The position numbers and the translations under genes were made by a program. The notes below the pieces were generated by a model, which was not told the DNA's origin, did not search any database, and saw nothing but the letters and a program-made list of their open reading frames with translations. Shown here one piece after another: positions 4,202 to 64,000 of a stretch of DNA of 64,000 nt (position 1 is its first letter; each line of letters starts with the position of its first letter). Origin of the DNA: Alphaproteobacteria bacterium (GTDB lineage: Bacteria > Pseudomonadota > Alphaproteobacteria > MPNO01); contig CBDFLJ010000002.1 of assembly GCA_965248835.1 (NCBI GenBank), positions 2,400,001 through 2,464,000 on the forward strand, in the 5' to 3' direction.

Positions 4202-5152
4202 TCAGGCCGCCAGGATCCCTTTCATGCGATCTTCCTGTTGCTGCTGTTGCGCCTGTGGGGCTTGAACGCATGCGTTCAAGGGCAAGGCGCGGAGCGGCTT
4301 GTCCATCATATCCACGGGCGGGTCGCCGCGGTATGCCTCGGCCGGGGTTCGCCCGTCCAGCGCCGCGTGCGGCCTCTCGAGGTTGTAAAAGCGGACCCAA
4401 TCACGGGTCAGGCGCCGGGCGGCGTAGCCGTCGGCGATCTCGTGGAGATAGACCGCCTCGTATTTGAGCGAGCGCCACAGCCGCTCGATGAAGATGTTGT
4501 CCATGCACCGGCCCCTGCCATCCATCGAGACCCGGATGCCGGGCGCCTGCAGGCGCCCGGTGAAGGCGAAGCTGGTGAACTGGCTGCCTTGGTCGGTGTT
4601 GAATATCTCCGGCCTGCCGTATCGACCCAGGGCCTCGTCGAGCGTGTCTGTACAGAAGCCCGCGTCCAGCGTGTTCGACAGCCGCCAGGCCAGGACGTAC
4701 CGGCTCGCCCAGTCCATGATCGCCACGAGGTAAAGGAAGCCACGCTGCACCGGGATGTAGGTGATATCGGCGCACCAGACATGGTTCGGCCGCTCGATCG
4801 CCAGGCCCCGCAGCAGATATGGGTAAACCCGGTGCTCGGGGTGCGGCGCGCTGGTCCGCGGCGCCCGCCAGATCGCCTGAAGCCCCATCAGGCGCATCAG
4901 CCGTGCGGCCCGCCGGCGCCCGATACGCACGCCCTCGCGGCGCAGGTGAAGCACCATCCGGCGGGCGCCGTAAAACGGGTACTTCAGGAACAGCTCGTCG
5001 ATCCGCCGCATCAACGCCAGCGTCTCGACGCTCTCCCCCTTCGGCTCGTAGTAGAGCGAGGAGCGCGCGATCGACAGCAGGCGGCATTGCCGGCTCAGGC
5101 TCAGCGCCGGGTGATCACGCACCACCATCGCGCGCCGCTCCGTCCGGCTCAT
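4202..5152 (-). CDS. IS3-family transposase OrfB (DDE integrase core)
   Basis: WCADITY, FNTDQGSQF, NIFIERLWRSLKYE, YN.ERPH motifs. Confidence 0.9.
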   Translation of the reverse strand: MSRTERRAMVVRDHPALSLSRQCRLLSIARSSLYYEPKGESVETLALMRRIDELFLKYPFYGARRMVLHLRREGVRIGRRRAARLMRLMGLQAIWRAPRTSAPHPEHRVYPYLLRGLAIERPNHVWCADITYIPVQRGFLYLVAIMDWASRYVLAWRLSNTLDAGFCTDTLDEALGRYGRPEIFNTDQGSQFTSFAFTGRLQAPGIRVSMDGRGRCMDNIFIERLWRSLKYEAVYLHEIADGYAARRLTRDWVRFYNLERPHAALDGRTPAEAYRGDPPVDMMDKPLRALPLNACVQAPQAQQQQQEDRMKGILAA

Positions 5153-5439
5153 CGACCGGACCCGCGCGATAAAAAATCCCGCTCCACGATCAGCTCCCCG
5201 ATCTTGGCATGAAGATCGCGGACCTCGCTCTCATGGTCCCGAACCCGCCGCTCGGCGCCCTTCGAGAACACCTCGACCAGACCCTCCATCGCCTGGCGCT
5301 TCCAGGCACCGACCTGGTTCGGATGGACCTGATGCTGCGAGGCGATCTCCTGCAGCGTTCGATCCCCGCGAAGCGCCTCCAGCGCAACCTTCGCCTTCAG
5401 CTCTCCCGAAAATCGACGTCGCTTGCTGCTCATCTGCAT
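5149..5439 (-). CDS. IS3-family transposase OrfA (HTH)
   Basis: KRRRFSGELKAKVALEAL...QVHPNQVGAWK; ATGA overlap with orfB; slippery GGATTTTTTA near its end. Confidence 0.85.
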   Translation of the reverse strand: MQMSSKRRRFSGELKAKVALEALRGDRTLQEIASQHQVHPNQVGAWKRQAMEGLVEVFSKGAERRVRDHESEVRDLHAKIGELIVERDFLSRGSGR

Positions 5440-60000: not shown

Positions 60001-60546
60001 TCAGAGGAAGACGGTCAGGTTCTTGGCGAGCAGGACCGACTGGTCGAGGATGATTTTTCGCCGGGCGATCATCAGCGCGCCGCCGATCCGGCGCAATTCG
60101 TCCGCGCGGCGGCCGACAAGGTAATCGGTCTCGGTCTCGAGGCGGTTGCGGTGGACCAGGAAACGGCAGGTCACCGTGGCCGCTTCACCCTCGGGCAGGG
60201 CGTCGACGGGCTCGACAAGGCGGATGTTGGTGATCAGGTGCGAGACCCGCGAGGGCGGCTCCTCGGCCCAATGGATGCCGGTCATGATCTGGCGGACACG
60301 CTTTTCGAGCGTCGTCTTGTCGTCATGGAACCAGGCGACATCGTCCTCGCCGGTGATGTCGTGTTCGCGCTCGGACCAGGGGAGGTTCTTGCGCAGCGGC
60401 GCCCAGTAGACGATGTCCTCGGTGAACAGATCGAGCCATTCCACGTAGCGGCGCTGGTCCAGCAGGTCGGCCTCGCGGTAGAGCAGGTCCTCGATCTCGC
60501 GCATCAGGCTCAGATAGGAAAGCCGCGCAGGGCCGGGGTCAGCCAT
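60001..60546 (-). CDS. Ring-hydroxylating dioxygenase beta subunit (HcaF/BphE-like)
   Basis: LYREA.LLD.R....WL, W.E.PPSR..H.ITN, G.R.D.LR, DQSVLLAKNL..F. Confidence 0.9.
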   Translation of the reverse strand: MADPGPARLSYLSLMREIEDLLYREADLLDQRRYVEWLDLFTEDIVYWAPLRKNLPWSEREHDITGEDDVAWFHDDKTTLEKRVRQIMTGIHWAEEPPSRVSHLITNIRLVEPVDALPEGEAATVTCRFLVHRNRLETETDYLVGRRADELRRIGGALMIARRKIILDQSVLLAKNLTVFL

Positions 60547-61867
60547 CGCCGGCACGCGCGACGTGCAGGTCCGCCGAGCTCTGTGCGTCCATGTACTCGG
60601 CCCAGCGCTTGTAGAGCTGCCGCGGATTCTGTTCGGTGGTCACCGGCGCCTCGGTGACGACGCCCGGGATCAAGGCGCTCGGCCCGCCGGCCCCGAGCCC
60701 CGCCTTGTAGTGATACGGGAACCGCCGTGCGATCGTGCCTTGGCTCGCCGCCGAGGCGTAGTTCCAGTTCTCCATGTCGTCCTGCTCGGTCATCCCGGCC
60801 GGGCCGGAATAGCGCAGGTAATAGCGTCTCAGGAACCGCTTGACCTCCTCGGGCGCGTCCTTGTCGACGAAATAGACCCGCCAGAGCTCGGTGCGGTCGG
60901 CAGCGCGCGGATGGCCGACGATGATCGTGCGCGGCTGCTGGCCGTGCAGCGACATGTTGGGAAAGACAGTGCCGACGATCACGTTGATGCCGGCCTTCTC
61001 GCCCAGCCGCGCGACGCGCTGCCGCCATCGGTCTTTGTAGTAGGCCGCCGTAGCCGCCGAATCGGCATAGTCGGTCCTCTCCGCATCGATCGGTCCGACA
61101 CCGTAGGTGAAGCCGTGCCCCTCGTGGTGGCCGGCCAGAATCAGCCGTCCGGGGTCGTCCCGCCTGCCCTCGCCTTCGGTCGGGCCGATGCCGACCATGT
61201 CGACCGAGCGGTGGCTGACGACGTGCAGCGCATCGCCGGCGAAGTTCTCCGCCACGAACTTCCAGTTCGACGGGATGATCCATTTCTGGACCGCGCCGAG
61301 CAGTTCGGTCTCGCCGTCGCCGCCGTCCCAGGGCGCGAGTGCGAGGTCGAGCGCGAACCGCGCCTCGCCCAGATAGTCCTCGAAGGAGGGCGCGGCCGCA
61401 TCCCAGGTCGCCCAGATCGTGCCGCGGCAGGTCGCGAGCCCGGCCACCTCGACCAACCCCCAGTCCGCCTTGTCGAACGGCGGCCGGTAGGCGTTCTCGT
61501 AGTCCTGGACGCCGACCAGCGCGCCGTCGGTGCCGTAGCTCCATCCGTGGTAGGGGCAGACGAAGGTCCGCGTGTTGCCCTCGTCGTAGCGGCACACCCG
61601 CATGCCGCGGTGCCGGCAGGTGTTGAGGAAGACGTGCAGGGAGCCCGCGCGGTCGCGGGTGAGGATCACCGATTCCTCGCCCATCCGCGAGACGAAGAAA
61701 TCGCCCGGCGCGGCGACCTGGCTTTCGTGGCCGACATAGAGCCAGGCGCGCGCGAACAGGCGCTCCTGCTCCTGGCGGTAGATGTCCTGGTTGACGAAGA
61801 TCTCGCGGCTGATCTCGCCGCCGTCGAGGTCGATCAGGGCGCGGGCGGAGCCGCCGAGGCCGGTCAC
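60539..61867 (-). CDS. Rieske ring-hydroxylating dioxygenase alpha subunit (biphenyl/phenylpropionate group)
   Basis: CRHRGM...CPYHGW; NWKF.AENF.GD..H...H; FPN; GPAG..EQDD.ENW. Confidence 0.9.
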   Translation of the reverse strand: MTGLGGSARALIDLDGGEISREIFVNQDIYRQEQERLFARAWLYVGHESQVAAPGDFFVSRMGEESVILTRDRAGSLHVFLNTCRHRGMRVCRYDEGNTRTFVCPYHGWSYGTDGALVGVQDYENAYRPPFDKADWGLVEVAGLATCRGTIWATWDAAAPSFEDYLGEARFALDLALAPWDGGDGETELLGAVQKWIIPSNWKFVAENFAGDALHVVSHRSVDMVGIGPTEGEGRRDDPGRLILAGHHEGHGFTYGVGPIDAERTDYADSAATAAYYKDRWRQRVARLGEKAGINVIVGTVFPNMSLHGQQPRTIIVGHPRAADRTELWRVYFVDKDAPEEVKRFLRRYYLRYSGPAGMTEQDDMENWNYASAASQGTIARRFPYHYKAGLGAGGPSALIPGVVTEAPVTTEQNPRQLYKRWAEYMDAQSSADLHVARAGDG

Positions 61868-62775
61868 GGCAGGATCTCGTCGAGGAGCTGTTGCGCGAGC
61901 GCCGCGCCCGGCGCCGGCAGGCCAAGCTCATGGGCGAGCTTGAGGCAGAGCCGGAGGTCCTTGTAGAACACCTCGCTCGCCTGCGGTGCCATCTTGAGCT
62001 TGGACCAACGCTCGGCGACCGCGCTTTGCGCCATCCCATCGCCGATGATTTTCTCCAGCATTTCGGCCGACAGCCCGGCCGCGCGCCCGAGGCGCATCCC
62101 TTCATGGGCGGCCATCAGATTGACGCTGATGATGAGCTGGTGGGCGAGCTTGGCGCGGATGCCGGTGCCGAGCCCGCCGGTATGGGTGATCTTGGGACCC
62201 GAAGTCTCGAAGATCGGCCTGCAGATCTCGAATGCGCGGTCGCTGCCGCCGACCATGTAGGACATCGTCCTGGTCCTGGCTCCTCGCTCGCTGCCGCTGA
62301 CCGGCGCATCGATCAGCTCGACCTCGCGCTCAGCCGCGGCCGCGGCCAGCCGTTCGATCGTCGCCGGCTCGACGGTGCTGTGGACGGCGATGATGGTGCC
62401 GGGCTTGGCGCCGGCAAGCACCCCGTCGGCAGCCAGCACGACGTCTTCGACCTGGGCGTCGTCCAGCACGCAGATCTCGACGACCTCGCCATGCGCGCCG
62501 ACCTCGCGGTTGGAGCGGGCGATCCGCGCGCCCGCCTTCGCCAGCGCATCCAGCGGTTCGGACCGGCACTGCCCAAGGACGTCGTAGACCATCAGGTCGT
62601 GATCCGACTGGGCGAGGTTGACGGCCAGGTACTTGCCCTGAGTCCCCAACCCGACGTGCCCCGCTTCGAGGTGCTGCCAAAGCGTTGGATTGTAATCAGC
62701 CGCAACAGGCGCCTCGCTCGCGACTTCCGTCACCTTCACTTTCTGAGTCCCCAACCCGATAAACCCGGCCTTCAT
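61864..62775 (-). CDS. NAD(P)-dependent oxidoreductase, 3-hydroxyisobutyrate dehydrogenase family, with in-frame 35-aa insertion
   Basis: GFIGLG, HST, DAPVSG, MVGG, K..Q, KDL; GLGTQ duplicated. Confidence 0.85.
   Translation of the reverse strand: MKAGFIGLGTQKVKVTEVASEAPVAADYNPTLWQHLEAGHVGLGTQGKYLAVNLAQSDHDLMVYDVLGQCRSEPLDALAKAGARIARSNREVGAHGEVVEICVLDDAQVEDVVLAADGVLAGAKPGTIIAVHSTVEPATIERLAAAAAEREVELIDAPVSGSERGARTRTMSYMVGGSDRAFEICRPIFETSGPKITHTGGLGTGIRAKLAHQLIISVNLMAAHEGMRLGRAAGLSAEMLEKIIGDGMAQSAVAERWSKLKMAPQASEVFYKDLRLCLKLAHELGLPAPGAALAQQLLDEILP
62638..62759. repeat. 17-bp perfect direct repeat flanking an 88-bp foreign segment
   Basis: CTGAGTCCCCAACCCGA at 62638-62654 and 62743-62759; period 105 bp. 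Confidence 0.9.
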
Positions 62776-62794
62776 CGGTACCGTCCTTTCCAGC

Positions 62795-64000
62795 TCATCC
62801 CGCCGGCCGAGCCGGCGCGCGTGCGTGTTCCACCGCCTCGACGATCCATGCAGGCGAGACCGGCGTGTGGTTGACCTTGATCCCGAACGGCGACAGCGCG
62901 TCAGTGAGCGCGTTGGCGATTGCGGCCGGCGGGTTGACGGCGCCGCCCTCGCCCATGCCCTTGAAGCCACCGAGGCTGTCGGGCGAGGGGCTCTGGAGGT
63001 GGTGTACCTCGATCCGCGGGACGTTGCAGGCCAGCGGCGCCAGGTAGTCGGCGAAGGTCACCGCAACCGGGTGCCCGTCCTCGTCATAGGCGGCATGCTC
63101 GAGCAGCGCCTGGCCGATACCCTGGGCGATGCCGCCGTGCAACTGGCCTTCGACGATCATCGGGTTGACCACCGTCCCGCAGTCTTCGATCACCACGTAG
63201 CGCAGGATGGCGACCGCGCCGGTGCGGATGTCGACCTCGACGACGACGGCGTGAAGCGAATTGGAGAAGCTGCCCGGATCGGGCGCGCGGTAGCGTCTGG
63301 TCGCCTCCAGCCCGGGGTCGATGTGTGCGGGCAGCTGGTTCGCCCGGTGATTGGCGATGCGGGCGATTTCTTCAAGCGTCATGGCGTGCGCGGGATTGTC
63401 GGCGACGACGATGCCGTCGCGGTAGCTCAGCCCGGCCGGATCGACCTGCAGCTTGTGCGCAGCGATCGCGATCGCCTTGTCGATGATGTCGCGGCTGGCG
63501 AGGATCGCCGCGCCGCCGCCGTAGACCAGGCTCCGGCTCGCCCATGTTCCCAGCCCGTAAGGCGCGACCGCGGTGTCGCCGAACCGCACCTTGACCCGGT
63601 CAAACGGCACGCCGAACTCATCGGCGACGACCTGGGCGAAGGTGGTCTCATGCCCCTGGCCCTGGCTGTGGGTGCCGAGGATCGCGGTGATCGCGCCGTC
63701 GGGCTCGAGCCGCACGCAGGCCGTCTCGAGCCCGAGCACCATTTCGATGCCCTTGCGCGAGACCTCATCCGGCCCGAGCGCCGAATGCTCGACGATCGCG
63801 GCGAACCCGACTCCGCGATAGGTGCCGCCGGCACGCAGCGCGGCATGTTCCCGCCGCAGGTCGGACAGGCCCAGGATCCTTTCCATCTCGTCCAGCGCTT
63901 CGGCCGAGCTGCCGCTCTCGAAGCGCAGGCCGGCCGGCGTCTGGTGAGGGTAGCTGCGCACCACGTTGCGCCGGCGCACCTCCAGCGGGTCGAGCCCCAG
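62795..64000 (-). CDS. Xanthine dehydrogenase-family molybdopterin-binding large subunit, C-terminal part (5' end outside window)
   Basis: HSQGQGHET, G.GT.ASRS, DCG.V.NP.IV.GQ..GG..QGIG, KGMGEGG. Confidence 0.9.
   Translation of the reverse strand: MGLDPLEVRRRNVVRSYPHQTPAGLRFESGSSAEALDEMERILGLSDLRREHAALRAGGTYRGVGFAAIVEHSALGPDEVSRKGIEMVLGLETACVRLEPDGAITAILGTHSQGQGHETTFAQVVADEFGVPFDRVKVRFGDTAVAPYGLGTWASRSLVYGGGAAILASRDIIDKAIAIAAHKLQVDPAGLSYRDGIVVADNPAHAMTLEEIARIANHRANQLPAHIDPGLEATRRYRAPDPGSFSNSLHAVVVEVDIRTGAVAILRYVVIEDCGTVVNPMIVEGQLHGGIAQGIGQALLEHAAYDEDGHPVAVTFADYLAPLACNVPRIEVHHLQSPSPDSLGGFKGMGEGGAVNPPAAIANALTDALSPFGIKVNHTPVSPAWIVEAVEHARAPARPAG

Follow-up and report, generated by a model that had tools for sequence, protein, structure and literature searches.

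A mosaic of insertion sequence pieces in a dehydrogenase gene as a candidate scar of a lost IS5-family element in an alphaproteobacterium

What event could have placed pieces of a transposase gene, between two copies of a 17-bp sequence and without closing the reading frame, inside the gene of a putative dehydrogenase? The question is raised by a locus near the end of a 64,000-nucleotide stretch of DNA, here called the window (C2:2400001-2464000), from the 4.89-Mb, two-contig genome (G000; contigs C1 and C2) of an alphaproteobacterium (GenBank assembly GCA_965248835.1); positions given without a contig name are those of the window. An earlier note, made from the letters of the window, had described the duplication and the foreign-looking DNA inside it, and had proposed that a stray fragment of an IS5-family insertion sequence (IS) was captured there. 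The analysis reported here traces this DNA to an IS family resident in the same genome and points to another origin: the 105-bp insert is probably, although considerable doubt attaches to it, the scar of an IS5-family element that was lost by repair or replication with repeated template switches between the host DNA and the IS.

The genome contains the source element 12 times in full and once as a split copy; the unit is 947 nt long and its copies are 98.8-100% alike, while the IS itself measures about 942 bp plus a 3-bp duplication (reference unit, C2:331370-332316). It comprises two overlapping frames (copy L002) with matches to DUF4096 (E 6.7e-29), DDE_Tnp_1 (E 3e-19) and DDE_Tnp_1_2 (E 8.8e-10), and its ends read GAGCCCTTCCGGAAAGTT and GAGCCGATCCGGAAAGTTT, the latter being the near-complement of the former. 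The DDE_Tnp_1-type transposase, the terminal inverted repeats and the short target duplication assign the element to the IS5 family, in which it may belong to an IS427/IS1031-like subgroup. Its target is CTNAG in all 12 full copies, 10 of which have an identical TNA on both sides (TNA duplication). The sequence CTNAG is uncommon in the genome, occurring 5106 times in 4.89 Mb (0.00104 per position), and only two distinct sites lie in the ancestral host gene. The TNA flanks of the other two full copies, C2:794503-795449 and C2:852643-853589, are unequal (TAA/TCA and TAA/TTA), which hints at IS-mediated rearrangements. At C1:129397-131288 two 947-nt copies lie head to tail with one TTA in common, the second of them having small complex changes at IS 757-760. 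The plasmid collection contained no match to the IS.

The locus was compared with this element, with 10 aligned homologs of the host protein and, over 62300-63100, with contigs (Logan) of four public runs, X1 to X4, which belong to one sample of one study, are metagenome-sized and contain a near-identical strain at depth 6-18. The features on which the argument turns are the following.

61864..62775, minus strand: host gene, encoding a putative HIBADH-like NAD-binding beta-hydroxyacid dehydrogenase; its product has 303 aa, against 264 aa in most relatives
62565..62576, plus strand: private in-frame insertion of 12 bp, encoding LGQC after YDV; absent from the contigs of all four runs and from the 10 aligned homologs
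62638..62654, plus strand: left copy of the 17-bp duplication; its CTGAG (62638-62642) is the IS target, to which the IS left end is joined in run X4
62652..62693, plus strand: IS segment 1, 42 bp, equal to IS 740-781; 100% identical to 12 places in the genome and encoding DVPRFEVLPKRWI in the transposase sense
62694, plus strand: single A, untemplated or misincorporated, where the IS has 19 nt (782-800) that encode ERTFAW
62695..62727, plus strand: IS segment 2, 33 bp, equal to IS 801-833; 100% identical to 13 places in the genome
62728..62733, plus strand: CGTCAC, equal to IS 837-842 after a 3-nt skip (GAA), as read by eye against the IS sequence
62734..62742, plus strand: tail of the insert, CTTCACTTT, 9 bp with no safe source, compared by eye
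62743..62759, plus strand: right copy of the 17-bp duplication, running on without a break into the gene's original 5' end

Exact search of the window found the 17-mer CTGAGTCCCCAACCCGA on the plus strand at 62638-62654 and again at 62743-62759, so that the copies are 105 bp apart and enclose 88 bp. With up to two mismatches allowed, these are the only two matches in the window, where 0.02 would be expected by chance, and two matches were obtained in none of 100 shuffles. The minus-strand open reading frame (ORF) 61864-62775 stays open across both copies, and its 303-aa product reads MKAGFIGLGTQ-KVKVTEVASEAPVAADYNPTLWQHLEAGHV-GLGTQGKYLAVNL; in order, these are MKAGFIGLGTQ, 30 new residues and HVGLGTQGKYLAVNL. 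Terminal inverted repeats were not found between 62540 and 62780, where internal positions of the IS alone match, so the locus holds neither an intact copy of the IS nor one resembling a miniature inverted-repeat transposable element (MITE). The description given in the earlier note, namely the spaced 17-bp repeat, the open host frame and the lack of inverted repeats, is therefore accurate, and so is its statement that normal transposition did not produce the locus, the insert being a mosaic of internal IS pieces.

All the places in the genome that match the 42-bp and 33-bp segments lie inside the one IS family. The resemblance of the opposite strand to an IS5-family transposase, which that note had recognised from a motif, proved to be far stronger than supposed when the insert was set against the genomic copies as it had suggested: both long segments are perfectly identical to resident IS DNA, and the ERTFAW that it had found to be missing corresponds to the 19 nt replaced by the A at 62694. 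The insert pieces stand in the transposase sense on the plus strand and thus antisense to the host gene, which confirms that a transposase fragment is read in frame from its opposite strand. The 17-mer itself is related to the element at either end: its first five bases, CTGAG, are the IS target, and the last three bases of its left copy (CGA) are at the same time IS 740-742. The tail may match the right end of the IS over ACTTTC and IS 789-795 over CACCTTC, but neither of these short matches is significant. Across the DDE region of the IS, an antisense frame stays open for 179 aa (locus L002 1136-1675, minus strand), and because the host frame runs along this frame, no stop codon arose. The idea that the 18-bp and 3-bp skips had rescued the gene from stop codons was rejected; they remove no stops in the host frame, the antisense frame of the IS being open throughout its 179 aa.

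The same gene contains a second, smaller insertion, at 62565-62576. The 14-mer 62566-62579 equals IS 280-293, and apart from the host gene its occurrences in the genome are confined to the 12 full copies of the IS and the split one; among 2,000,000 random genomic 12-mers, 1393 were present in the IS. The four residues encoded, LGQC, come after the YDV that closes strand 2, close to the cofactor-specificity loop. The host gene thus carries two IS-derived patches, 78 bp apart.

The public runs contain two other states of the site. In all four of them a contig joins 62637 to 62743, skipping 105 bp with 17 ambiguous bases, and the flanks of this empty allele contain no letter that differs from the window in 62300-62637 or 62743-63100. 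Run X4 has a 54-nt contig of depth 5 that reads 62613-62642 and then continues with 24 letters identical to IS 6-29, and a 1022-nt contig ends at 62642. An IS-bearing allele thus exists, with the complete IS left end at exactly this CTGAG and oriented like the IS pieces of the window. Since the 17-mer begins with the IS target and the left end of the IS is joined at 62642 in X4, the fragment would represent the remains of an IS that was once at the site. Over 62652-62727 the filtered records of the runs gave no contig of the resident IS; the one match there was a contig of 255 nt from a related IS (3 mismatches).

Comparison with relatives gives the direction of change. Syntenic orthologs in G030 and G033, genomes of another family, have 72% DNA identity and the same oxygenase neighbour, and read MALKVGFVGLGVQGKYLAIN without the insert; the DNA search found no host-gene ortholog in the same-genus genomes G001 and G002, and only G030 and G033 gave one, so that genomes supplied no close empty site. 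In the alignment with the 10 homologs, which include these two orthologs, two insertions are private to the window protein, namely the 35 residues and LGQC. Among the best 120 database proteins the 303-aa form is the window's own, and most of the others have 264 aa, that is, 303 less 35 and 4. The new 35-aa segment claimed previously is consequently confirmed, being lacking in 10 of 10 aligned homologs, and the empty allele was recovered both from the two orthologs and as a joint in the run contigs. By this comparison the insert is derived and not ancestral.

On the plus strand, the order at the locus is host DNA to 62564, IS 280-293, host 62577-62654, IS 740-781, the A, IS 801-833, IS 837-842, nine unassigned nucleotides and host DNA again from CTGAG. 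The whole interleaving is colinear, and host 62577-62654 spans the IS insertion point and 12 nt of its right flank. Such an order could have arisen as follows. The IS would have inserted at CTGAG 62638-62642, inside the GLGTQG codons of the dehydrogenase gene and antisense to it, and would have been lost during break repair, or replication, across the IS-bearing allele. The growing strand may have switched template several times at microhomologies of 1-5 nt (GGA, CTGAG, CGA and C; the overlap CTGAG would apply if the template carried the IS). It would have been extended beyond the break by 12 nt of the right flank, and would then have re-entered the IS, skipped twice and rejoined the right flank, and the outcome would be a 17-bp duplication with 88 bp of IS-derived filler, plus the 12-bp filler 66-78 bp to the left. 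Template-switching copying between the host locus and an IS is the simplest process that would account for the locus. Derivation of the locus from flank-IS-flank by deletions alone is impossible, given the 12-bp piece in the left flank and the 17 bp of host DNA present twice.

Under this reading of the insert as a scar, the 17-bp duplication is better read as a by-product of repair synthesis than as a target duplication. The earlier note had named, as a finding that would refute it, the residue of an IS with 17-bp target duplications; the residue of an IS is what the locus appears to contain, but the target duplications of this element are 3 bp long. As in a transposon footprint, the element is found at the exact site (one of four runs) together with the empty allele (four of four), and the residual DNA is templated, colinear and joined at the microhomologies GGA, CGA and C, with the exception of the 9-bp tail and the A. 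Template-switch repair, which that note had listed as one option, is accordingly the mechanism preferred here.

Several observations weigh against a scar and would agree with an artefact of assembly or consensus, namely a chimeric partial insertion made by a long-read assembler or polisher from a strain-mixed metagenome, in which the population would have the empty and IS-bearing alleles and no cell would have the scar. We judge this explanation, the main rival of the scar, unlikely, but it has substantial points in its favour. Both of those alleles are present in the runs and the scar is not: none of its junctions occurs in the contigs of X1 to X4, which drop rare variants and come from filtered records, and the depth in the bin 62705-62731 is 0 in all four runs. 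Exact scans of the collections metagenome_contigs and genome_contigs returned no scar junction, but 38 nt of plain left flank had no match in them either, so that these collections do not contain the locus and their silence carries no weight. The 303-aa protein is known from this assembly alone (one member, one contig), which leaves the scar allele without independent support, and the IS-bearing allele is seen in one short contig of one run out of four. The site itself is polymorphic for the IS. The assembly is strain-mixed, with duplications at contig ends and a CheckM-type contamination of 9.5%: the last 21 kb of C1 (2264326-2285374) differ from the reverse complement of C1:1-21046 by 141 mismatches, and between C2:1-23721 and its duplicate at C1:271259-294985 there are 278. 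These contig-end duplicates, which are 98.8-99.3% identical, are probably strain haplotypes walked twice, and this would explain the contamination value. Some other IS copies look moth-eaten, for example the IS630-like copy C2:992686-993730, and could reflect consensus errors at polymorphic IS sites. A scar would also require at least six template switches in one event, which is many, and leaves the 9-bp tail and the stray A unexplained, while the microhomology at the junctions would be imitated by an alignment-driven consensus error. Finally, the in-frame property of the 105 bp helped to pick the finding, so that only the 12-bp insertion provides unbiased evidence for selection.

However, a pile-up of the two real alleles cannot put IS 280-293 in the left flank, 66-78 bp from the junction, where both alleles agree, and the 17-bp host duplication cannot be produced by flank-IS-flank deletions alone. 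Base accuracy outside IS elements is high, as the duplicated strain haplotypes, 44.8 kb in all, show only 4 gap openings, and the IS copies differ from each other by shared substitutions, length changes being confined to the tandem copy C1:130342 (a 1-nt deletion and a few small changes). The length of each private insertion is divisible by 3. Among the 44 isolated direct repeats of at least 15 bp in the genome, this locus is unique in having a spacer of repeated DNA, and no other duplication-plus-repeat-filler structure was found genome-wide, so the further short duplications around mobile-element fragments that had been envisaged did not appear. With its perfect ends and messy centre, the IS630-like copy is better explained by two-ended gap repair than by a mixture of alleles. 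At a site like the present one, clean alleles would be expected from Flye, Racon-type and hifiasm procedures.

The process favoured in the earlier note was the ectopic capture of a free fragment, in which a 17-nt staggered break in an IS-free gene is filled in and a stray IS piece is joined by end joining or by an integrase- or spacer-acquisition-like activity. Formally, insertion into a staggered cut is recognised by a duplication around foreign DNA, and the 12 full copies and one split copy would offer an identical source; we nevertheless consider this origin very improbable. The repeat starts with the IS target, and X4 has the IS joined at 62642, an IS-bearing allele at exactly the same site and in the same orientation. 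The fragment consists of at least three colinear pieces with skips, and a fourth lies 78 bp away. Searches of this genome, rated 100% complete, gave no matches to Ku (PF02735) or LigD_N (PF13298), with positive controls, which argues against classical end joining, and none to the Prim-Pol family. A spacer-acquisition-like event is likewise unsupported, as the repeat is present in two 17-bp copies only, both inside the ORF, and no array or leader of the type of clustered regularly interspaced short palindromic repeats (CRISPR), whose repeats measure about 24-48 bp, was found at the locus (cas genes were not searched). Scarcely credible is a route by reverse transcriptase (RT), in which a template-jumping cDNA of the transposase mRNA, made by an RT of the group-II-intron type, would have patched the break. 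The IS pieces do lie in the transposase sense, with skips of the kind made by a template-jumping RT; the genome has one RT gene with a YADD motif (C2:2218448-2219026), and a preprint (10.1101/2022.03.14.484287) reports that group-II-intron-like RTs take part in microhomology-mediated break repair. Yet this RT is of the ordinary YADD intron type and not of the YIDD repair type named in the preprint, host DNA is interleaved with the IS pieces, the IS-bearing allele is a DNA template right at the site, and nothing in the sequence requires RNA. The genome search with RVT_1 gave a single match, a 450-aa RT of the group-II-intron type (locus L023 1165-2517, minus strand).

The genes on either side of the host gene are as follows.

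60001..60555, minus strand: ring-hydroxylating oxygenase beta subunit
60539..61867, minus strand: Rieske ring-hydroxylating oxygenase alpha subunit, downstream of the host gene, its start overlapping the host-gene stop; G030 and G033 share this neighbourhood
62795..64000, minus strand: molybdopterin-binding subunit of a xanthine-dehydrogenase-family enzyme, upstream of the host gene and cut by the end of the window

The host protein matches the Pfam families NAD_binding_2 (E 1.3e-36) and NAD_binding_11 (E 1.4e-16), and the closest solved structures are 9rb2, 3w6u and 3cky. Residues G42, G44, G47, K209 and N219, which belong to the GxGxxG loop and to the Lys and Asn of the helical domain, are invariant among 67 sequences. 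The presence of both domains, of GxGxxG and of the Lys/Asn pair places the product among the HIBADH-like beta-hydroxyacid dehydrogenases. Its Pfam and Protein Data Bank matches begin at residues 32-41, and that to NAD_binding_2 at residue 39, the second copy of GLGTQG. An AlphaFold2 model of the 303-aa protein, built on the 67 aligned sequences, has a mean predicted local distance difference test score of 86.6, with values below 50 for residues 1-29 and a dip to 78 around LGQC. In this model strand 1 is formed by residues 37-41 (EAGHV), followed by the GLGTQG loop and a helix at 45-55. The second GLGTQG copy, preceded by the IS-encoded LEAGHV, is predicted to supply the Rossmann fold with its strand 1 and glycine loop, and the old start with the insert is predicted to be a floppy N-terminal tail. 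Since the model leans on the alignment, it demonstrates compatibility and not function.

Both insert sizes, 105 and 12, are multiples of 3, so that the overlap with the downstream oxygenase gene is preserved, and as the host frame also follows the open antisense frame of the IS, the gene stays translatable. An intact IS in the host gene is expected to be polar on the oxygenase genes, which makes selection for loss of the IS plausible. Core genes (his genes and hslVU) are found less than 8 kb from the locus, which therefore belongs to the chromosome and to no obvious island. In runs X3 and X4, 56-nt contigs of depth 4-6 follow the window over 62817-62846 and after 62846 depart into 26 unlike letters; this branch suggests a further structural variant just upstream of the host gene. 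At the other end, the window starts with transposase genes at 1096-1737 and 4205-5230 (ISXO2/IS1595-like DDE and rve integrase-core IS3-like).

Some other mobile elements of the genome have irregular structures. The IS630-like copy C2:992686-993730 equals active copies except in its centre (about reference positions 205-565), where deletions of 1, 7, 14, 2, 10, 62 and 7 bp occur; it may be a derivative of the kind left by abortive gap repair or a consensus error. In a second IS630-like copy, 12 mismatches stand beside 13 gap openings; one of the gaps is a deletion of 28 bp lying between direct repeats of 12 bp. An IS3-like copy (C1:260092-260145) contains a private, non-tandem 15-bp duplication, CTTCACCAGTTTTTT, beside the frameshift motif, which the four other copies compared do not have; this is a weaker parallel to the scar. 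Three orphan internal IS pieces of 111, 67 and 51 bp (C2:1759508-1759618, C2:2104883-2104949 and C2:2315959-2316009) are 100% identical to active copies and lie in intergenic or relic DNA, without IS ends or flanking duplication. The IS630-like, IS3-like and orphan-piece oddities are compatible with a scar and with an artefact alike.

A broader proposal can be put forward tentatively, and we think it doubtful as a whole: that this bacterium mends breaks at IS sites by low-processivity, microhomology-primed copying like the synthesis-dependent strand annealing and the end joining by polymerase theta (TMEJ) of eukaryotes, and so writes IS filler into genes. In the present gene it might have created a new in-frame 35-residue N-terminus with LEAGHV as strand 1; the same process might lead to the moth-eaten IS copies and orphan bits and provide raw material for MITEs, and the operon mRNA would carry 42 and 33 nt perfectly antisense to the transposase mRNA of all copies, in its catalytic region.

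If the scar is real, three states of one site (empty, IS-occupied and scarred) are found in one natural population, offering a rare and directly testable case of the repair, in a bacterium, of the hole left by a putative cut-and-paste IS. A cycle of insertion and loss could then add coding sequence, and not merely break or restore a gene, and the picture of filler DNA and abortive gap repair drawn from plant and fly transposons and from the IS5-related PIF/Harbinger elements would extend to bacteria that lack classical end joining. Should the scar prove an artefact, the locus gives a useful caution on how strain-mixed long-read assemblies treat sites polymorphic for an IS.

The known systems closest to the locus are of several kinds. 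Filler-DNA footprints and abortive gap repair are established for the Ac/Ds elements of maize. Nearly precise excision that leaves a short transposon remnant is classical for Tn10. Several short templated stretches, flanked by duplications and joined at microhomologies of 1-5 nt, are produced by TMEJ and by microhomology-mediated break-induced replication (MMBIR) or serial replication slippage in eukaryotes. The present locus resembles the products of TMEJ and MMBIR in its short templated stretches from nearby DNA, its flanking duplication and its microhomology joints, and differs from them in its bacterial host and in its template, a transposon situated at the break. With CRISPR spacer acquisition it shares a repeat duplicated on either side of new foreign DNA, but the two 17-bp copies are in an ORF with neither array nor leader, and the insert is a mosaic with skips.

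Among bacterial processes, the removal of IS30/ISApl1 at mcr-1 leaves ragged excision junctions with repeats of 1-4 bp kept, which PMC5821093 ascribes to template switching at replication of the transposition intermediate. The loss of an IS with ragged junctions and short repeats through template switching is common to that case and the one described here. The IS30/ISApl1 and Tn10/Tn5 events are nonetheless single deletions near IS ends, in copy-out-paste-in elements or by way of long inverted repeats, whereas at least six junctions, internal pieces, a host duplication, a distant patch and an IS5-family element are involved here. The IS-excision enhancer (IEE) is a bacterial agent of IS removal that joins the ends at microhomology, according to PMC9943667 and 10.1101/2023.06.07.543989. 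IEE is reported there for circle-forming IS3, IS1 and IS30 elements, and templated multi-piece filler is not among the products described in the parts consulted; the present genome has no Prim-Pol match.

The PIF/Harbinger elements are the eukaryotic relatives of IS5, with the same type of DDE transposase and a 3-bp TTA/TAA duplication, and their families are said to follow abortive gap repair, in PMC2213677, which cites Rubin and Levy 1997. The literature search found no description of an IS5-family scar with IS-derived filler in bacteria, which is not proof that none exists. As in the footprints of Ac/Ds and PIF/Harbinger, an element is present at the site, and its loss would have left behind brief stretches of element and flank, colinear and joined at microhomologies; this genome too has an internally deleted derivative whose ends are intact, the IS630-like copy. 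Unlike those footprints, the locus is that of a bacterium in which Ku and LigD were not found, the retained pieces are internal to the IS and not its ends, and there are a 17-bp host duplication, a second filler 78 bp away and an in-frame coding product. The kind of event, a transposon footprint with filler, is thus already known, and a multi-piece, in-frame bacterial case at an IS5-family site, with the empty and the occupied allele in the same population, would be new.

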